Shown here: positions 37,086 through 56,300 of the stretch, piece by piece
Layout of the letters: every line of letters begins with the position of its first letter
Numbering within the stretch: position 1 is the first letter of the stretch
NCBI GenBank assembly: GCA_964106915.2
Contig: OZ066924.1
Origin: Podarcis gaigeae
Lineage: Eukaryota
Direction: 5' to 3' (one strand)
Length of the DNA: 64,000 bases
Notes under the pieces: model-generated
What the model was told of the DNA's origin: nothing
Database searches by the model: none
Seen by the model: only the letters and a program-made list of their open reading frames with translations
Program-made: the position numbers and the translations under genes

Positions 37086-40000
37086 TTAAACAGAAGTTAC
37101 CAGGTAGGATCCAGAATGACGCTTAGGACTTTGGGCACCACTTGAATCTGTACCTTCAGTCTTTGAATCTCGTTTTTTTGTGCTGTTATTCACTGGCGTT
37201 GGTATCTGTGATGGCCGAGTGGAACTGGAACTATTATCCACACTGCTTTTTCTGGGGCTTGGATTGTAGTTGAAAGGAGTCACTCTTGCCGCAACAGCAC
37301 CACTGGGCGAACTGTGTTTGCTCGAGCTGCTGGAACTGAATGGCGTGCGTTCATTAACAGTGTTTTCACTAGTCTCTGGGGCAAGGGCAGGGTTGCTTAG
37401 CAAAGGTTTCGTTTCCGTTCCTTTCTTGTCTGGACTATCTACTTGAATAAATGAATTCAGGCGGTTTTCTAAACCCACAGTACGAACAGGGACATTCCCA
37501 TTCCCTGCATTTTGTTTTCCGTTAAGATCTTTGCTATTCACATTCCCTTTCTCCGAAACACTGTCAATAACAGGGGGGGTGTTCCCTGTGGGAGATTTTC
37601 CAGATCTAGGATTATTAATAGGGCAGTCCTCAATCCTCACCCAAACATCTTCTGTCTTTGAGACAGCAGGTGCCATCTGGTAAATGAGAGTTTTTGAATC
37701 GGAACCATTGGTAGCACCTGGTGAGGAATTCTGAGGACTTGTCATTATCTGAGGAATTTCGTTCTCTTTAATCTTCCGCCAAGTACCTTTTGTTGGCGCT
37801 TGACTCTCTTTAGATTGCTTGAGTCCAGAAAAAGAACTTACATGTTGCTTCTCATCCTCACTCTTTGCCTTCTCACTGGATTCTGAAGAAGCTGAAAGAA
37901 TTGAGGAAGAACTTCCAGTCCTACGCCAGGTGCTCACACGAGGAAGTGATGAGGAATGTTTACTATGTTCGCGCTTCCAAGTCCCCGATCTGTTAATTGG
38001 CAGCCTGGAAGGACTCTCTGAGTGAGACCGAGTTATGTCATGCCGTTTTGTTGGTCTCCCATCACTGTATTCCAAAGAAGGACTCAGGCTAGGAGGTAAC
38101 TTTCGCCAACCACCAGCTTGGATGGCGGAATGAGTAGATAAAGACATATCAGGAAGGGATGGGCTTAAAACTGGAGTCTGTGTTTGGGACTGTGTAGGAG
38201 AGTCTGGTCTGGAAGGTGACAAAGATTCAAACGAGGCAGACTCTTCCAATTTCCTTCTTAGAGTGGGACTTGGAGTTTCTTTAATAAAAGTTGACTGGCG
38301 GACCAAAACAGGTCTCTCAGATCTATCAGATTCACTCCCACTGGATTTTGCCGATGACATTCTAGATACATCAGACTTCTTGTTTGATCCGCTGATACCA
38401 GAAATTTGGTTTAATCCTTTTGAGGCAGATTCACTTCTGGGAATACCACTGGTACTTTTGGGCAACCCAGTTTGTTTTCCCACCGTTTGCTGGCTCATCT
38501 GTCTGCCTGGAGAGGTGTATACCATTCTTCCTGAACTAGAAGACTTAGTGGAAGTCGTACTCGGAGAAGATGTTCGTGGCAGCTGGGAGAGTTTATTAGG
38601 GGGACTTATGCCATTTCTGCCGGGTGAAATTGAATTTCGGCCAGGAGACTGCAGAGGTCTGGTTAAGGGTTGCTGTTGTGGTCTAGAAGGTGTGGAATCT
38701 CTAGATCCTGATCTAGAAGGTCCTTTACTTGATCCACCCTGTTGAGATGGCTGCCTGGATATAGGACTTGGCTCAGGTTTTACAGATGGTTTGACTACTC
38801 TGGGAGAACTAGTAGAAGTCTGGTTATCATTAGGACTTTTGGAGGTTGCACTCTTTAGTTGAGGCCCTTTTTTAGAAACTGGACTTGTACTTGAGGAGCT
38901 ATTTCGAACTCCAGGAATATGAATCATTGTCCTACCTCGGGAGATTGAGGGCATATTGGTTTGCAAAGGCTGTTTCAAATGACTTGTAAGTTCTGAATTA
39001 GAACGAGCTTTACCTGTGATCATGCTTTTATACACTTTCTTTCCTCCTTTGATACCTTTATTTTCAGATTCTACTTTCTTTGTTTCCAGTGTACTCTTCT
39101 CCCCTGGTTTAATAATTCTTGGACCCTTATTACTAGTAAAAGGTTTTTCTTCTTGGTCGGGTGTAAGATGAAAGGGTGATCCTAAGGAAATTCCAGATTT
39201 TAATGAAAGGATTGAATCAGAGTCTGATGAGGCTTGTCTAGACAGTGAAGCTGCTGCAGCAGCTTGATGTAAGCTGCTAACAATAGAATTTGCACCTTCT
39301 TGAATAGCCTTCCAGTCAAAATTTTCTGAATCTGGTGAGAAACCATGTTCTGAATCAGGCCTTTGTATATCCTTCAAATCTAGTGTCAGGTCTTCTGCCA
39401 AAATCCCTCCCATATTTCTAGAGCTATTTTTTTCACTGTCTGATTTTGTTCTAGAAGGCTTTTTCTTTTTAGGCATGGCAGAACTAATACACTCCTGTAG
39501 AAGATCATCCTCTGAGTCAATACTAAGGGAACTGAGGGAACTGTTTCTTGAAAAACACACAGGAGTATCTTCAACATGAAATGATTTAGGAGCGTAGCCA
39601 GAAACTTGTGGTCTACTTGGTTCTATCTGTGCATCAGATGGTTCCATTTGTTCTCTGGGTTCACTTTCTTTGTTATTGTTGTTTTCTTGATCGATATCAC
39701 TGAGAGAACTCAGAGATGAATTGCGAGAGAAGCAAACAGGAGTATTTTCTATTGCAAAATTTTGTGTTTTCTCATCGGAAGCTGCAGCCCTTTCTGAAAT
39801 ATCTTTGGATGACTGAGGGAATGGGGTTTGCTTCTGCACCAGAGTTTTGGGTTGCTTTCTTCCGGCTGGAGTGTGTTTTTGGCAAGCTTGCATTCTACTG
39901 CTTGATTGCTGGCTTGCAGACTGATGTTCTGCATTGGTACTAGGTTTAATTTCCCTTTCTTTCCCCTTTCTCAGTTCTGCCTTTTCCCTTGAAAGATCCA

Positions 40001-43000
40001 CATCGTCGTCAAAGTCTAGAGAACTCAAAGAGTCATTACGCGAAAAACAAAAAGGAGTTCCTTCAATTGGAGTGTAATGATGGGGGGAATCAAATGCAAA
40101 GCTTCCTCTTCCACGCTCTTCATTATTTGGAAGTTTTTCATTGAAGTCCCTTGAGCTATTTTTAAGGTTTTGTTTCTTTGTCTCTTTGTTGTCTGTATAG
40201 GTTCTTTCACTACTAAAATTACTTTTTGGCTCTGTGGTTTTTCGTAAGCGTGCTCTATACTCATTACTTTGGGGTATGGGTTTTACTGGTGAAGTTGGTT
40301 TCTTTTTCTCAGCTTCTAGCTGATTTTTGGCACCTACTGATGAGGATGTAGATGCTTGCTGGATTTGATCCATTATCTTTTTCACTCTGAAAGGTTTGTG
40401 ACTTTTCCCTTTTGGCATAGCGGAATTAATGCATTCTGCAAGAATATCATCACCTTCTTCTGCTTTGTCATCATCCAATGCAATAGTAGTCCCAGTTAAC
40501 TTTTTCCCTCTCTGAGCATCATCAGTATTTCTACCTTCTGTGGGAATGGTATCTCTCTTTTCAAATTCTGCAGGTTCCATCAATGTACCACCTGTCTCTG
40601 CATTAGCCAATTCATTGGGTGGTGATTCTATTGTGAGATCACTCAGCGATGTAGCCGTTGAGAAATTTATTGGTGTTCCCTCAACACAATACACGCGTGG
40701 CATATCATCTCCAGGTGTAAAACTAACATGTTTTTGAGAATGCAATCTGCTTTGAGAAGGGAGAAGTTTATACACAGGCAACTGGCTTGGCTTCCTGGCT
40801 ACAGGTGGAGGTATTTTTGAAGCAGTTATCTGTGAAGGCTTTTTGGTTTTACGTGAAGATTTTGTTGGCATAGCAGAAATAATACATTCCTCCAATATTT
40901 CAATATCATCTTCATCTGAATCATCCAGGATATCCTTTTCAGTCTCTGTGGGCTTCTCTGTCTTCTTCTCTTGATTATCCTTTGTGTCATTTGGCTGCTC
41001 AAGTTCCGATTCATTCCCATGGTCGTTTTCATGCACAGGAGGCATTATTCTCAACTCTACATCTTTCTGTATAAACGGTTCATCAAGACTCAATGCACTT
41101 AGGCTTGATGAGCAAGAAAATCCATCTGGTGTACTTTCTGTAGCAAAATGTAACAAAGTGTCTGCATCTTGCAATACCTGTACTCTTTGAACAGCTGTAT
41201 TTACAGCTGTTTGCCTTGGCCCAGACTCTCTCTTTTCAGTGGTGGGTATTTTTGTTTTAACTGTTTCTCTCTTTACTTGGGTTGCTTGTGGAGGGGGTGG
41301 GGTTTTACTTCTGCTTGGTGGCATTGTTTGCCCAGGACTGTCTGGAAGGTCACTTGGGCTTATAATACCACTCACCATCCCACTACAAGGCTCGCTCTGA
41401 ACAGAGCTAGCAATCGAACGGCTCTCAAAACTATCCAGGGAACTGACAGAAGTACACCTACTAAACATAAGTGGAGTCTCCTGCACATAATGTTCTGGTG
41501 GGCTCTTAGGAGTTTGCGCACCACTTTTTGAAGGAGATTTGGCACCCGAGGAAAATTCTACAGCTTTGTGTCTTGCTGAATCAGAAGGGGATAGACTAGA
41601 AGCCTGAAGTCTATTTGATTTTGTTCTAATGTGTTGTGAGGCTGAAGAGGTTTCATTTACAGTACCTGCTGCAGACAAACTCCTACTATTTTCTTTCATC
41701 CCCGCTATCTTCAAAGAGTTGTCCGTGTCTCCTGCCCGTGTGGATTGTTCACGTCCTGTTTCATCTTCAGCTGATGACAAAGATGACAGAGAGCTACATC
41801 TTGAGAAACAGATCGGTGTATCTTCTACACAATAGGTCTGTATTGTTTCCTGGTTGATGGAGGGTGCTTTGCAGGTCGCAGACTTCTGGGTGTGACCGGC
41901 TCTACTTTGAGCAGAATTTGGGTGAAGCTGGTTGTGTCTCTTTGAGCCAGCCGAGGTTGATGTATTCCCACTACTTGATGAAATATGATCCGTTTTAGTA
42001 CTCTGTACTGAAGGGCTCTTTGAAAAAGAAAAAGATGGCTTCTGTGAGGAAGGAGGAACGTCTGTTGAATACTTGAGACTGTAATCAATAGGCTGATCTA
42101 CATGGTGCTCTTCTTCATTGTATTTTATGCTATAATTAGTTGGATGATCTTCTTCCTCATGCTGTTCCTCCTCAGAGTAGCGTTCACTATAGTTAGTTGG
42201 CTTATCATCCTCATAATCATCAACTGGACATATGGACTGGTTCCCTTTTGGATTTATTCCATGACTGCAGGTAACTCTGTTCTGTTCTGAACTATTAGAT
42301 TCCCTTGATCTGAAAGGAGATACACACTCTGTCTGTCCAAAAGCTGACTGATAATTCATGTGTTTATTATCACTACTCTCAGTGTATACAGGGTATGCTC
42401 CACTTTGGCTTCTGGACTGTCTTTGTTCATTCTGCTTTATTTCCTCTTCAATTATGTGCTTAGGTCTTGCCCACCTTTCATTTTGTGATGGGCTTTGCCT
42501 TCCAGAATTTAATTGCTCATCAGAATATTTTAGGCTATAGTTTATTGGAGTATCTAGCTCTCCATCGTTGTCATCCATATGGTTAGCACTGTGTATTTTA
42601 TGGGCTAAATCAGCAGGGTACTGTCCATAACTGCAAAATTTACTCTCTTCATCTTCAGAGTAAGATTCAATAGGCTTCATCTGTCCTCTTTTACCATACC
42701 CATCACTGCTACTGACACTATTTAAGCTATCATTAGAAGCTCTCTTATATTCCACTTTTGCATAAGGCACAGGACATGTCCTGTTCTCAGATTTAGGAAA
42801 GTTGTAGGTATTTGTGTGGGAATGGGCAGCGGCTGTTCTTCTTAAAGCATTCCTATCTTCTGGCAAACAGTGCATTTCAGTTACAGATCCATTGCTTCTC
42901 TCTTCTTGTGGAATATGCATATTTACTTCTTCCATCACTTTGGAAATCTGGGCTGCAGCAGTAGAGATCTGCATTCCCATTCGTTTAGAGGAGCTCCCAG

Positions 43001-43659
43001 AATTTTCTGTTGCTGAATGATAGCTGCTTAATCCCATTGCACGCTCTCTATCCAAGCTCCTGTCCTTGTCAGACCGAGAACTCTCTGTATTTCCTCTGCT
43101 TGAGGAAGAAGAGCCAGGCAGTACAGTAGTGTTTAAATATGGTGGAAGTACGGTTACATTGCCACTATTAAAATTCTCAGACCTGCAAACTCCATCTTCA
43201 TGTCGATTAGCATCTAGAACATATTCACTGTACAGATTCTGTTTGTGTCTTTGCTTATTACGATGAGATGTTTTGGGACTTAAGTTATCAATATTGTCAA
43301 AGGTCTCAGATAAATGTTGAGCATCTAACTCTGCTTCCAGTGCTTTTTGCTTTCTAACATGAAGAGATGGTAAGCTTGAACCCGGAGACATGATGTTAGC
43401 ATCTTTATATTTCGCAGGCCTGTTTGCCATTAGGTTCCTTAGAGCTGCAGCACTGCCCATGGCTATCATCTTGTGCTTTGAATGTATGAGATTTTTGAGC
43501 ATGCTAACAGCTCCCATGTCCCACAGTGCTTCCTGGTCCTTTGAATTCCGTGCAGAGAGGTTCCACAAGGTTCCACATGCATTACTGACTATTGTCAAAC
43601 TATGAGACTTCAAGTGATGCAGCAAGGTTTGCAAACAGCTGTTCTCTCTTAGAATTTGC
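37086..43659 (-). CDS. APC: APC terminal exon 15 (classical numbering), 6574 bp coding
   Basis: ttccag|G CAA ATT...TCT GTT TAA. Encodes the last ARM repeats, four 15-aa repeats (e.g. LDTPINYSLKYSDEQ), seven 20-aa repeats (e.g. EDTPICFSRCSSLSSL), three SAMP motifs, the basic region, the SQIP EB1 motif and C-terminal VTSV. Confidence 0.99.
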
Positions 43660-44899
43660 CTGGAATTAAAAAAAAGGGGGGGGAGGGAGGGAATCACTTT
43701 AACAAGATGAAAGACAAAAAAGTGTCTCTGTTTATTTCCTGCTAATAATGTTGCCCAAAATCCTATAAATAGGCATTAGCATAAATTCAATTTTAGACCA
43801 GGATCTAATAACGAATATTTGTGTACAGAAACTGTTTGTAGGATAATACTGACACTGTTGCTCCCAATTTGTCACCTGGGCTCAAATGGCAAACTTGGAA
43901 CAGAAACTTTTATTCTGCTTTGGGTAATGTTTCAGGGGGGAAGGAAGGTTCTGTCAGTGACAGAGATGGCTTCCTGGGGTTTCCCCCCCCCTGTCCCACC
44001 CCATTTTTTATTTTAGTTTTTAAAAACAGCTTAAAAGTTGCCAGGATGGCAGCAGGAAGTTCCTCTCCTACCAGTGCTCAATCCAATGGCACTGCTGAGA
44101 ATTAATTTTTTTTAAAAAAAAATTAAAGGAAGATTCTAGAAGCTTCCCATTTTCCATAGTATGTACTCCCTTCCCTCTCCAAAATATCCCAGAGCCCCTA
44201 AACGTTGCTGCCCCCAAACCACTTTCCAAAACCATGTGCCCTGTTGGAACAGGGGACAAGGCCACCAAAGAATTCAGCAAACCTCCAAACTGGGGGAGAC
44301 TCAATAAAATATAAAGCTTTTCCAAATGCACACACAGAGCTTGCTTTCTGGGAACAGACCCTTACACTTGCATGGGATGTCACTCTGAATGGTCTATTAC
44401 CAATGGGGATAGCTTTTCTGAGAGTGTTCCACCTGCAGTGAAAGATGTGTGCATTCATATGTGACTGCAGAATGCATCCCTTTGGATTCCAGCCAAGGTT
44501 TCAGCTAAGAACATCCCTACTTTTAAATAGGCTTATCCCACACTAACAAACTAAAATAAAGTTGATTTGTGCTGTACAAATCACATTATTCAAAACAGGG
44601 CTTATCATGTACTGCCTTTATATTATCTTATACTTGTAAAACTGGGACCATTTTTTATCACAAGCAGCGCAGGAATCTCTTACCAAATAAAATGCTTACT
44701 TATGTTCCAGAGAAAATTATTAAGCTGCAGCCATCTGAGCAGTGAGCTTCTAACAACAACACTGCAGCAATAATTTATGTAGCAGCATACAACAACACCA
44801 AGTATAACTTTGCTCATAATCTCTGCCTCCTTCCAGTAAATGTCATCTGCTGCATGAAATGCATGGCTTACTGCTTAGGTAACTAGATGGCACACTTAC

Positions 44900-49130: not shown

Positions 49131-49871
49131 ATGGGTGTCCTCATCCACCTACTACATTTGGCTCATGAGGGAAAACCTGACCAGGATCTGGCCTGCAGAG
49201 CCAAAAAGGTTTCCCCTCCTTATATACATGGAACGCCACACAAGAACTCGGGCCTCTTTTTTTTAATTATTTGTTTATAAGATTACCTGCCCTTCACAGT
49301 GAGACTACATAACGTTACATAACAACGGGCTACATAACAACATATAAAAACATAAAACAGATGAAAATCAGAATAATTTTAAAGCATATAGAACAGATGG
49401 AAAATTGGAGCAGAGCACTATAAATTCAGCAGAGGAGCCAAGGTAAAGAGAGGAGTCTTCAGTATGTGTCACAGGGAAGGGCTTGGAGCCAATCTGGGTC
49501 TCTGCTCTTGGACCTAGGAGCCCTAATGCATTATGGGGGCATGTTATCATAGGGGAATTTGCCTACCCCTCCTGCCTTCCTCCACCCCAGGCCAACTACA
49601 GTTCTTACAGTCTTCCTTCTTCGCCAGTTATGTTGCTGCAAAGTTTCTTCCCTTGCAAGATTAAAGTAGCAACAGAGTGGAATTATAGGAAAACTAAGCA
49701 AAAGCGACATGGGCTATAGTGGGCAGATTTGCCCATCATAACCAGAGGTCTCATCTCTCACACAGCTTGCTTGAAATTGCTTGTTCTACAAAGAACTCAG
49801 ATTCGAAGCCGTAACATGAAAAAACACTTCATGCTGGTTTTCAAGTAAAAGCTTTAAACACAGTGACATAC

Positions 49872-50250
49872 TTGGATTTTTGTCTTGGTCCATGCCTTGG
49901 TCATGTGCTTCCTGCCATTCCCAACACGTTTCACAGTAAGCTCGGATTTGTTCTAGAAGATGAAGGACTCTGATTTCTCGCCTGCCTCGCTTATCGTCAG
50001 GCTGCGAGTGAATGATATTATGCAGTGCTGCGCTGGCTCTGGCACGGGCTTCCTTACTACCCCGGGAGTTTCCCAACAACACTGAGTCTTTATCGTTGCC
50101 ATGCAGAAGTTGAATGAGGAGCGGAAGACATCCAGACTGGCGCATAGCTATGCAGCTGTCCTGGGAGCTAGACATGGCTAGCAAAGTTCGTGACATGTCA
50201 TCTTTATCATGAGTACCCAACATGGACAGCAATGAATACACCATTTCAAC
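49872..50250 (-). CDS. APC: APC exon 9 (379 bp)
   Basis: ttgcag|GTT GAA ATG...AAT CCA A|gtatgt. Translates VEMVYSLLSMLGTHDKDDMSRTLL...WEWQEAHDQGMDQDKNP. Confidence 0.98.
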
Positions 50251-50583
50251 CTGCAAAGCAAGCAATTTTTTAAAAATGTTACCAATTTTTAAAGTATAAG
50301 CCATGGCATTTTTGATGAACTGATGATGAATTAAGCCTTTGGGCCTAAGTTAACAACTCTCAACGTTACAGATTCTGTATTGCACTATTCTTAGGCAGAT
50401 AAAATAATGCTGACATAGTAGTACAAACTGTATCACCAAAATTAGTGGAGGATTCACTATGTGTTACTCTTGTCTGTAAACAAGACAGGGCACTCATAAA
50501 CAATTATGCATTTTCAGAAAAGCTTAATGACACCCTCCTCATATTGTTAATGTAGCAGCAATCTATTGCCACATCATGAAATA

Positions 50584-51881
50584 CAGTGGTGCCCCGCAAG
50601 ACGAATGCCTCGCAAGACGAAAAACCCGCAAGACGAAAGGGTTTTCCGTTTTTTGAGGCACTTCGCAGGACGAATTTCCCTATGGGCTTGCTTCGCAAGA
50701 AGAAAGCCCATAGGGAAATCTCCGGGGACCTCTTTTAAATGCTGGCGGTGGGGAGCAAAGCCTTCCCCCCCCCCTCCGGCCTTCAGAAGAGGTCCAGGAA
50801 GGCCGGCGGGGGCCGAAAGGCTTTGCTCCCCACCGCCAGCATTTTAAAAGCAGTCCGGGATAGCAGGGAAGCGCTTCCCGCTATCCTGGACGGCTTTTGA
50901 AGGCAGGCGGGGGGAGCAAAGACTTTCGCCCCCCGCCCGCATTCAGAAGAGGTCCAGGACCTCTTCTGAAGGCTGGCGGGGGGCAAAAGTCCTTGCTCCC
51001 CCCTGCCTGCCTTCCCGGGAGAGCGGAGAAAAGCAGCGTGTTTCTCCGCTGTCCTGGACGGCTTTTGAAGGCGGGGGGGGGGAGCAAAGACTTTCGCCCC
51101 CCGCCCGCATTCAGAAGAGGTCCAGGACCTCTTCTGAAGGCTGGCGGGGGGCAAAAGTCTTTGCTCCCCCCTGCCTGCCTTCCCGGGAGAGTGGAGAAAC
51201 GCAGCGTGTTTCTCCTCTGTCCCGGACTGCTTTTGAAGGGGGGGAGCAAAGACTTTCCGCTCTCCCGGGAAGGCAGGCACGGGGGAGCAAAGACCTTTGC
51301 CCCCCGCCCGCCTTCAGAAGAGGTCCTGGACCTCTTCTGAAGGCGGGCGGGGGGCAAAAGTCTTTGCTCCCCCGTGCCTGCCTTCTCGGGAGAGCGGACG
51401 GCTTTTGAAGGCAGGTGGAGGGGAGCAAAGACTTTTGCCCCCCCGCCCGCCTTCAGAAGAGGTCCAGGACCTCTTCTGAAGGCGGGCGGGGGGCAAAAGT
51501 CTTTGTCCCCCCCGCCAGCCTTCCTGGGGGCTTTTAAATCGCCCCGGGACAGCGGAGAAGTCCTCTGCTGTCCCGGGGCGATTTTTAAATGCTGGCGGGC
51601 GGCAGCGAAGCCTTCGCTGCCGCCCGCCAGCATTTTAAAATGCTGTCCCGGGGTTTTTTAAAATGCTGGGGGTGGGAAGAAAAGCCCTTGTCCCCCCCCT
51701 CAGCCTTCAGAAGAGGTCGGGGGACAGACTGTCCCGGACCTGGTCTGAAGGCGGTTTCCATAGGAACGCATTAATTGATTTTTAATGCATTCCTATGGGA
51801 AACCGTGCTTCGCAAGACGAAAAACTCGCAAGACGAAAAAACTTGCGGAACGAATTAATTTCGTCTTGCGAGGCACCACTG
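50584..51881. mobile_element. Tigger/pogo-like non-autonomous element with an internal GC-rich palindromic array
   Basis: TA-CAGTGGTGCCCCGCAAGACGAA...TTCGTCTTGCGAGGCACCACTG-TA. Subterminal CGCAAGACGAA repeats and four full internal palindromes. Confidence 0.92.
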
Positions 51882-52562: not shown

Positions 52563-53197
52563 CTAAGAGTTTAATCAACAATTTGGCGATGAAAGCATTA
52601 GCATAACACAAAATCATTTTAAAATTTCAGCATTTTAGAAGGCAACACGATTTAGAAGATAGGGTTAAACTGACATGTCAACTCTGTAAAAATCTAATTG
52701 TGCCAGAGGAGGGAAAGCTGCATCATGACCTGAGTCACAAAAGCAACAAGCGGTTAGCCATTTTGCCAGCAATGACAAAAATAGAATCTTTTAAATTATT
52801 GTTAACAATGTAACCATACCGTTTACACTGGAGGGTACGAGAATAGGAAGTGCTGCACTCACAAAGTAACATTTTTTTGTGAGAAATATTTCATTCCCTT
52901 AACCATAGTCCCTGGGCCAACCAACACAATTCTCTCTCACAGCGGTATTCAGCTCCCAGGTGGCATTTTCAAGCACAATTTCAGCATTACTGCTCTTTTC
53001 TCCTTCACTTGCACTACCAACCCCTCTCAATGTCAGGGATGCGCTTAGTCATACCAATTGCATTTTCTCTCTCTTTCTCCTCTCCCTTTAGGCACTGAAG
53101 TGACTACCCAAATTTCATTTAGGGGTGATCAGTTAAGTGTGACTGTGACATCATAGCATTTGCTGGGTTGCTGTCCAGTTAAAGGATGTTTAGTTTA

Positions 53198-53354
53198 AGT
53201 TACAGATAGGTAGCCGTGTTGGTCTGCCATAGTCAAAACAAAAAAAAATTCCTTCCAGTAGCACCTTAAAGACCAACTAAGTTAGTTCTTGGTATGAGCT
53301 TTCGTGTGCATGCACACTTCTTCAGATACACGTCAGATACTGGAAGGAATTTTT
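53198..53354. mobile_element. Penelope-like element terminal (pseudo-LTR) fragment
   Basis: 13-bp TSD GATGTTTAGTTTA (53185-53197 / 53355-53367). Contains the agcaccttaaagac...gagctttcgtg...cttcttcagat motif, a hammerhead and an inverted junction segment. Confidence 0.8.
53292..53329 (-). ncRNA. Minimal type I hammerhead ribozyme motif (Penelope-like element associated)
   Basis: Minus strand reads GTAT-CTGAAGA-A-GTGTG(CATG)CACAC-GAAA-GC-TC-ATAC: core boxes CUGANGA and GAAA, helix II, palindromic mini helix III, 4-bp helix I. Confidence 0.75.
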
Positions 53355-56300
53355 GATGTTTAGTTTATTTACTATTTGGCTTTTAGATGATCAACTAAGT
53401 TTAAATTATTGCAAAACTCAATGAAGGTGCCCTTTTCAAAGTTTCTGTAGTAGGGAGAGCATTTCTCCATAAATGTGAGAAACTTACATTTGTATATAGT
53501 ATATACATCCTATTTCTACTAATTTCGAATAGGAATCAACTTAATTTAATCTGGGGGACTCAATACTGAGCACATCAATTAAATGATTAATAACTTGCAT
53601 CCCAGTTTTCTTAGGATAGATCATGTGGCAAAGGTGATAATATCCTCTTGCCATTTAATCATTACTTCACTCCAGGAAAAGCCACTTGGGTAAGAAATCC
53701 CATTAACCTTTCCATGTACAAGCACCCAAAAGATCATTGTGAATACCAAACATTTGGCTATTAGGAGGACAGGACGCAAGGGTGGAAGCTTTTGGCTTCC
53801 AAGCAGAATTTCATTATGTTTTTATTTATACCCCAGCCAGATGGGTGGGGTATAAATAATAAAATTATTATTATTACTATTATCATTATTATCAGAATGA
53901 AGGTGTTTCTTGCCTTCCACCTATGAGATGCAGCAGTTATTAATCACACTGGGATCCTCTAATATTCTTCTTTTGGGGAGACAAGTGGAATGGGGGCTCT
54001 TACTAGGGCACTCTAAAACCGTTTTATGCAAGGTTTCGGCTTGCAGACCTGATCATTATTTGCCCGCCCACCCTAGGACTACCCACTTGTCAATCACCTG
54101 ATGTCACAACAAAGTGAAACCACACAGGGAAATGTAAAATGCCTTTTAAAGTGCACCATAAGACCAGACAATCAGCTAGATGCAGGCTCTTAAGGAGCCC
54201 ATTGCAAATCACTTGGCAAGACCCCATTGTGCAGCCCCCTGCCAATTAGCTGAGCAGCAGCAGCTGAAGACCCCTTTCAGGAGAGGAAGGTTGTTTACCT
54301 GCCTTGAACCTGTCATTAGGTATAGGGCTGGTGGGTGTGGCCTGGCTGCAACTGCCTGGCAGGGTTAGGGTTGACCTGACAGGTCTGATTAGGCCCCCAG
54401 GACAGAGGTTCTCCACCCAGATCCAGATCTTACTCTCAACACATAAGCAAGTCAGGCCATGTTTACCTTCCTCTACATTCCTACTGCTGTTTCAAAATTA
54501 AAAGAAATCCAGAAATGGTGGAAAGGAAGCACATGCAGCCCCTAAAGATCCACTCCACATCCAACTTGAATACAAATAACTCCCTGCTTGCATGCGTTCA
54601 GCACACACACAGTTTTTGGCCCCAGAAGGAGCGGTGGAATGGGCTTACATGTGCCCTGCCAAGGCACATGGTGTTTCAGAACACAACCCCCATGCAAACG
54701 GGGAGTTGCCAGTACAATGATGGCAGAAGTAATATAAAAGGGTAGTGGGCATAATTTTTATAGCACACTCATATCTGGGCTTTACACCTCCCCCACCACT
54801 TCCCAAAGGATTGGGGGTGCACCATGCATTTCTCCAGCCAAGGTAACCAAGCCCAATATTAGGAAACCTGTGTTTATTGTGTTCTCTTTGCCTCAACGGT
54901 TGCAAGACAAAAAGCTTGGCAGCTGCCTGCATTAGCGAGTATTTTCCAGGAATGAAAGAAAGTTCAGAGCTGAAGTAGCAATAGGGCAACAGATAGTGCA
55001 GTTTGCCACTTTGCTGTTTGGTCCAACAGTATAGAGCTGAAAGTGGGACAGACTTTAATCAGTGGACTTTTTAATTCTGTGCTTGGTCCAAAGGCAATTT
55101 GCTCCTCTCATCCTCCTTCCTGGCAGCCTCCTTGCTCAGAATCATTTTTTTAAAAATGTTTTCTGCATAAGTACTGCTTATTCCAGGGGAATGGCAAAGC
55201 AGTAGCATATTTACTCAATTTTTTTTTAAAATTGTGACGGGTAGAATTTAAATCCAAAGACTTCACTGAAATAGTAAGGTTCTTGTCTAATATTTTGGTT
55301 TGTAAATGACACTTGCTAGTCAAGGCCCTCACAGACTGCATATATATTTAAAAGATTATTTAATGGAAGTGTTTATATTTATGTGGCCCAAGGATGGCGC
55401 TCTACACATACAGGTGCTCCAAGGGGCACATGAAAAACCTTCCCATACAAATACCTCACCATTACTTCAAATATAGGTGGGTCTTCTAGGCTAACAGCAG
55501 TTGTTGAACTACAATTCCCATCAGTCCCAGTCATGTTAGCCAATGGTCCAAAGATTATGGGAGCTGTCCTTTTTCAGTATCTAGAGGGACACAGGTTGAT
55601 CAACCCTGCTACAGGCAATATATTAACCAATTTTTTTTTTTAAATGTAACAATTCAAGGAAGGACAGAAAAAATATGAAAAAGATACAGTAAAACTGGTT
55701 GTGTAAATAAGGGAAAAAATGATGATGAATAAGGCAGTGATTATGAGAGAGCAAGAGAAGAGAGTCTTTACACTAAGCTGTCCTCTGCCACAGAAATAGC
55801 TGGAAAAGCACACAAAGTGAAAGCACTGCAGCTCCAATGATGTGTCCATGGAACCTAGTACTAAATTCCTTATAATAATCAAACCTGCTTTGGATAAGCT
55901 ATAGAGCTTAAACATTGGCAATTGTGAAGATGACCAATCAATTTGTTCTTCCAGAAATTGTTAGAAAGCCCTGAATTTGACAAAAGACCCAAATAATGCT
56001 GAACTGTATTTTTCAACTAATCTTACTGAAGACAGAACCAGTGTTAAATATACCCCAAACCTATTAAAATAGTAGCAAAAAGGAGTCCTTGGAATGTACC
56101 AATCCTCATCTCTTATTGGACACTCACTCTACCTCTGCCACAACCCTTTCTGATCCTGCTTGAATATACTCTTATTTTTTTCTCATCAACGCAACTAGTT
56201 CTGCTACATTCCCATCCTACTGTCTTCAACTCTATTCTCAACTCACGCGGTGCAGTTTTTTATTCTTATTTTAATATTCTCTCTATTGAAACACATCGCC

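Follow-up and report, generated by a model that had tools for sequence, protein, structure and literature searches.

The hammerhead motif in an APC intron of Podarcis gaigeae is likely a passenger of a high-copy Penelope-like retroelement

An intron of the APC gene of Podarcis gaigeae contains all parts of a small hammerhead ribozyme, which raises the question whether the APC pre-mRNA can be cut at this site or whether the motif merely travels with it. The analysis started from a stretch of 64,000 nucleotides of contig OZ066924.1 (assembly GCA_964106915.2), which is called the window here. It was verified that its minus strand from 53329 to 53292 carries a complete minimal type I hammerhead, and the core boxes, helices and palindromes of the original prediction were confirmed letter by letter. 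Read on this strand, the 5′ strand of a 4-bp helix I (53329-53326) is followed by the core box CUGAAGA (53325-53319), an unpaired A (53318) between positions 9 and 10.1, a helix II of 5 bp with a 4-nt loop, which as a whole is a perfect 14-nt palindrome (53317-53304), the core box GAAA (53303-53300), a palindromic AGCU in place of helix III (53300-53297), C17 (53296), and the 3′ strand of helix I (53295-53292). Cleavage is predicted between 53296 and 53295. Thus, the sequence characteristics of a minimal hammerhead (min-HHR) are present, i.e., the CUGANGA and GAAA boxes with an NUH triplet, the unpaired base 9/10.1, a G10.1-C11.1 pair (G 53317 with C 53304), a palindrome at 15.2-16.2, the absence of loop III and a short helix I.

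The closest counterpart was a min-HHR of the turtle Chrysemys picta bellii (PMC4209133, Fig. S3), which shares the 4-bp helix I, the CUGAAGA box with the unpaired A, a 5-bp helix II opening with a G-C pair and the palindromic AGCU. In contrast to the turtle motif, loop II has four instead of seven nucleotides and helix II is palindromic, C17 replaces U17, the motif could be tied to a full element, and its identical copies are unusually uniform. Searches with general models, as had been proposed, gave a divided result: an Rfam scan of the window at the gathering score yielded no match, while a generic type I descriptor matched exactly once when both strands of the window were scanned. For a minimal motif the Rfam result is no evidence in either direction. 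The 38-mer alone folds no better than shuffled sequences (z -0.44; 61 of 200 shuffles were as good).

The claim that the motif is sense in the APC pre-mRNA also held. Pfam was run on 61 minus-strand frames, and APC families were found in two of them, namely APC domains in a frame of 2,229 amino acids (37086-43775) and an APC repeat at 49786-50349. The same strand carries a Suppressor_APC exon immediately after the end of the window (C23:22262467-22262577). The next exon downstream of the motif has 99 nt (52562-52464); it is an AG/GT-bounded open frame between Pfam-matched APC exons and has itself no Pfam match. The hammerhead is therefore intronic, in sense orientation, and 730 nt upstream of this exon, which we take to be exon 8, preceded by intron 7, from the numbering of human APC. 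A downstream APC intron contains a GC-rich element (50590-51840) with internal repeats of 168 bp and 69 bp and similar short repeats at both ends, which looks like a non-autonomous DNA transposon.

The genome-wide count that had been called for was performed with the exact 38-mer. It occurs 9,021 times in the 1.515-Gb genome, and its reversed control does not occur at all. The copies are evenly split between 4,512 forward and 4,509 reverse, relative to assembly strands and not to genes. When helix II was left free and only both core boxes were required, 13,077 matches were found (control: 1), and a 34-mer directly downstream of the motif occurs 12,081 times. The exact copies correspond to an expectation of 0.38 per 64 kb. 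If placement is assumed to be uniform, a gene of 100 kb would contain a sense copy with a probability of 26%. The motif is thus not a product of chance, and yet one copy in the window is what would be expected. Because of this density, the presence of a copy in APC needs no special cause.

The motif is part of an insertion of 157 bp (53198-53354), which lies between 13-bp direct repeats, i.e., two copies of a target-site duplication (plus-strand 53185-53197 and 53355-53367). The main piece on the minus strand (53198-53331) starts 2 nt before helix I and ends in a tail. It derives from the pseudo-LTR of a Neptune-like Penelope-like element, of which it comprises the 3′ part; it is 97-100% identical to many other copies over about 135-165 nt, and the same sequence also flanks the open reading frame (ORF) of a full element (see below). 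The tail has 33 nt (53198-53230, minus strand) and equals the first 11 codons of the element ORF, identical to the ORF start in three full copies. The other end of the insertion is formed by 17 nt of a second pseudo-LTR piece, inverted and 5′-truncated (53338-53354, plus strand), which is complementary to 53244-53260. Between both pieces a junction filler of 6 nt is found (53332-53337, minus strand), and the filler together with the end of the inverted piece (53340-53333) forms a second copy of the initial 8 nt of the hammerhead. A TATA-like box, which is present upstream in full elements, is missing from the stub, and therefore it is expected to be transcribed only as part of the APC pre-mRNA.

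A comparison showed that 29 other loci share this family end; in many of them the inversion is longer and the insertion is flanked by repeats of about 12-16 bp. Inverted 5′ pieces and tails of 30-40 bp have been described as a signature of Penelope-like elements (PMC8557442), and the tail has been described in that study as well as in PMC11167929. Short re-copied patches of the hammerhead 5′ end are frequent at the junctions of other copies. In many insertions of the family two copies stand head to head, so that each strand has a core, and for 33 of 100 cores another one was found on the opposite strand at a distance of at most 1.5 kb. Another stub of the family, on the APC strand but lacking both hammerhead and tail, is located on C23 at about 22,284,000 (position 88,032 counting on from the window).

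To characterize the age of the insertion, 8 of 24 listed sequencing runs were compared at the site, all of them as contigs. In all five DNA-type runs of other organisms a contig joins 53184 directly to 53355, with 13 letters fitting both sides, which is a clean pre-insertion site; the flanks differ by only about 1-2%. Two runs came from the same species. X1, the best-matching one, may not be independent of the assembly; it contains the two ends of the insert. In the other one (X2), a single contig at flank depth, with no other differences, skips 53195-53394. This allele is either a filled site with a deletion of 200 bp or an empty site with a deletion of 30 bp, and in both cases the hammerhead is absent. 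In the eighth run, guessed to be RNA, the contigs stop at 53185 and resume at 53396 without a bridge; contigs can show presence but not absence, and allele frequencies cannot be derived from them. Because the site is cleanly empty in five of five other organisms and the X2 allele is devoid of the hammerhead, the insertion is recent and not fixed. The notion of a special link between the motif and APC was thus not borne out: exact copies exist in thousands, the relatives have an empty site, the species itself has an allele without the motif, and a second core is missing from the window and the next 80 kb.

Longer copies extend upstream into a GIY-YIG frame, and this led to the parent element. 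In a full element (L071, C17:77539500-77546500) two hammerheads are 3,010 bp apart and enclose an open ORF of 911 amino acids with a reverse transcriptase domain (RVT_1, E 9.5e-12) and, at its C terminus, a GIY-YIG domain (E 7.8e-6); these domain assignments come from L071, of which the APC stub keeps 11 codons only. With the motif at both ends of such an ORF, in the layout given in PMC4209133, its assignment as the minimal type I hammerhead of a Penelope-like element was corroborated. Translations of L069-L075 contain a C-x4-C-x2-C linker between reverse transcriptase and endonuclease, in agreement with the CX2-5CxxC linker given for the Neptune and Nematis clades (PMC8557442). In vertebrates, Neptune and Poseidon are present (bioRxiv 10.64898/2026.07.22.740005). 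Because of the linker and of this occurrence, the sequence makes it likely that the parent element belongs to the Neptune clade, a placement by features, with a linker that is common to Nematis.

The further features agree with those of Neptune-clade EN+ elements (Craig et al., 2021, PMC8557442), i.e., a single ORF for reverse transcriptase and C-terminal GIY-YIG, a zinc-finger-like linker, two cysteines between GIY and YIG, pseudo-LTRs, 5′ truncation, an inverted 5′ piece, a tail of 30-40 bp and a variable target-site duplication. L071, L069 and L070 are full-length copies whose open frames exceed 900 codons and encode nearly identical proteins. One full element (L070:511-6167) is located inside an apparent LINE endonuclease-reverse transcriptase frame and splits it. 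Judged from these sequences, the family is young and possibly still active. As in other metazoan min-HHRs (Cervera and de la Pena, 2014, PMC4209133), the motif resides in the pseudo-LTR and occurs in thousands of dispersed single copies from truncated elements. Non-LTR retrozymes (bioRxiv 10.64898/2026.07.22.740005) are likewise non-coding, derived from pseudo-LTRs and equipped with type I hammerheads. Unlike the head-to-tail arrays described there, with one motif per unit, the APC site contains a single stub with a target-site duplication; no tandem array was found at the site, and only one core is present in 144 kb.

The thousands of copies also record where copying of the element RNA ended. 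The first 100 cores from the search with free helix II, located on C1, were used for a survey of boundaries. In 42 of them the match with the full element stopped 4-6 nt upstream of the core, i.e., at the edge of helix I, in 40 it continued for more than 12 nt, and the remaining 18 ended elsewhere within 12 nt. Among all 9,021 exact copies in the genome, no more than 2,903 retain the upstream seven bases. In the survey, 22 copies stop exactly at helix I, and 15 of them have a G before it that is not templated by the element. Genome-wide, 1,606 copies have a G before helix I, while A and C together account for at most 880, counted with a slightly shorter pattern. In full elements, an initiator-like site immediately precedes helix I, and a TATA-like box is located 30 nt upstream of that site. 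In the simplest reading, the element RNA would start at helix I and reverse transcription would run from the tail to the capped end of the uncut RNA, which suggests that uncut RNA is what gets copied. Alternatively, the extra G could stem from a fold-back of the cDNA end on helix I, in favor of which the next helix I base is also a G.

Starts at the cut site are rare. Raw counts were 42 at the cut site versus 34 at a control offset, and about 120 versus 60 after correction for filtering. Of 20 inspected cut-site starts, eight were junctions with an inverted copy, formed by way of the 4-bp match of helix I. A small excess of true cut-site starts is possible. Their rarity means that cut products are not the usual template, and it is not a proof that cutting never happens. 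Splicing of a 5′-UTR intron was also considered as a cause of the hot spot, as helix I is preceded by a stretch resembling a splice acceptor, with one donor-like site 145 nt upstream. It was not supported, because among 102 copies with boundaries 4-8 nt upstream of the core, a mixed and partly selected sample, none carried the upstream pseudo-LTR at the junction. In a literature search that covered mainly papers outside of subscription, no published account was found of a 5′-end hot spot at helix I with an extra G, of a non-templated G or cap in Penelope elements, of an orientation bias of intronic hammerheads, or, apart from the Anolis study discussed next, of Penelope-like or Neptune elements in lizards.

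These results can be compared with Poseidon of Anolis carolinensis (Frangieh et al., 2024, PMC11167929), in which the tail also equals the ORF start and marks internal initiation of reverse transcription. Uncut RNA is the main template there too, and that study found no RNA-seq reads ending at the cut site. Its hammerhead cut only with the element protein. However, the Poseidon ORF starts inside helix II and reverse transcription starts 111-118 nt into the ORF, whereas in the family described here about 60 nt separate the motif from the downstream ATG, and the tail comprises no more than the first 33 nt of the ORF.

Can the copy in APC be expected to fold into an active ribozyme? According to PMC4209133, a single minimal motif showed no cleavage and dimers and trimers showed low cleavage. 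As no second core, with up to four mismatches allowed, was detected in the window and the next 80 kb (144 kb in total), there is no partner in cis in this region. Folding in the context of the intron predicted that the 17-bp inverted repeat closes a stable stem, with pairing probabilities of 0.6-1.0 for the inverted piece, while the probability was 0.49 for helix II and only 0.015 for helix I. For two 38-mers, a duplex through the helix II palindrome was predicted at -28.0 kcal/mol and the best structure at -30.6 kcal/mol. In contrast, the active double hammerhead reached -11.1 kcal/mol and two free monomers -13.6 kcal/mol, so that the active form would make up about 8e-15 of the two-strand ensemble (Boltzmann); such nearest-neighbour energies ignore magnesium, tertiary contacts and proteins. 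Because the duplex is far more stable than the active double hammerhead, the palindrome would be predicted to compete with activation and to trap two copies in an inactive duplex.

Taken together, the hammerhead in the APC intron stems from an inserted 157-bp stub of a Penelope-like retroelement that has a high copy number and likely belongs to the Neptune clade, and the motif is likely an inert passenger, removed by splicing without having been cut; we hold this view with high confidence. The sequences show how the insertion is built, from which element it comes, how many copies exist, that the site is empty in relatives and that the same species has an allele without the motif, while we infer the inertness from folding models and analogy. 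The fully intact core counts against inertness. The insertion would have begun with a nick of the intron by the GIY-YIG nuclease with a stagger of 13 bp. The reverse transcriptase would then have started about 33 nt into the ORF, leaving the tail, and would have proceeded to the 5′ end of an element RNA that had not been cut and whose start likely lies at helix I; at the junction, another short piece would have been joined in inverted orientation. In the APC pre-mRNA, a single copy with a helix III lacking a loop would be unable to form the core, a partner in cis would be missing, helix I would rarely form, and an encounter of two copies in trans would end in an inactive duplex held by helix II.

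The most serious alternative accepts the origin as a passenger and supposes conditional activity, in that the element reverse transcriptase-endonuclease or a host chaperone folds intronic copies and a measurable share of the APC pre-mRNA is cut. The core is intact and in sense orientation, and protein-assisted cleavage in vitro has been reported for the reptile Poseidon hammerhead (PMC11167929). Open-frame copies exist, so that by analogy to that system the family protein may be present and able to assist cleavage, and 33 nt from the start of the ORF remain beside the motif in the stub. However, Poseidon needed the first 172 nt of its ORF in the template RNA (PMC11167929), far more than the stub retains. 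In addition, cut-site starts are rare in comparison to at least 1,606 starts at helix I. Thousands of sense intronic copies also seem to be tolerated, because a third of the surveyed cores are paired with an opposite-strand core nearby and are sense in either gene orientation. Furthermore, a cut within an intron need not block splicing, which also counts against a conditional role in APC. Altogether, conditional activity is regarded as unlikely. In a broader version, insertions of an active Penelope-like family would have placed thousands of intact hammerheads in host introns, where the family protein would activate them; upon expression of the element, carriers would then cut part of their pre-mRNAs, that of APC included. 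This version is viewed as slightly less probable again.

It had also been suggested that the 14-nt palindrome of helix II could favor pairing with other copies, so that dimers in trans might cut the APC pre-mRNA. The palindrome is real and would, according to the models, drive strong pairing of two copies, and the family RNA is probably plentiful given the copy number. Yet the pairing that it drives is the inactive form, with a vanishing share of active structures. An active form of two strands with exchanged helix II would moreover require that helices II and III link the same two cores in a small closed ring, which appears sterically implausible. Neither the close turtle motif nor the majority of the 56 motifs in the alignment has a palindromic loop II (PMC4209133, Fig. 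S3). In the folding model, the suggestion thus turned into its opposite, and cutting by trans dimers is very improbable.

Domestication of the motif as an intronic ribozyme selected to regulate APC, which could be considered because it is sense and intronic in an amniote-type gene and such domestication has been proposed for the RECK hammerhead, also a type I hammerhead in a host intron (PMC6155905), is largely refuted by the empty orthologous site in all five close relatives, the same-species allele without the motif, the identity to thousands of copies and the intact target-site duplication. RECK-type hammerheads are conserved across birds and mammals and have tertiary contacts (PMC6155905), in contrast to this recent, non-conserved, high-copy minimal motif, and the canonical layout with a 6-bp helix I and a capped helix III (PMC4209133) differs from the 4 bp and the missing loop III found here.

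The copy in APC as such matters little, as it is another stub of a known kind of element. In contrast, the thousands of insertions of the family record the ends of their template RNAs, which lie mostly at helix I and hardly ever at the cut site, and this record bears on the open question of what role the hammerhead has in Penelope-like elements. Furthermore, APC alleles with and without the motif in one species offer a clean test of whether an intronic minimal hammerhead cuts its host RNA, and, if the element protein should indeed switch on intronic copies, these presence and absence alleles would provide a direct, allele-specific test.
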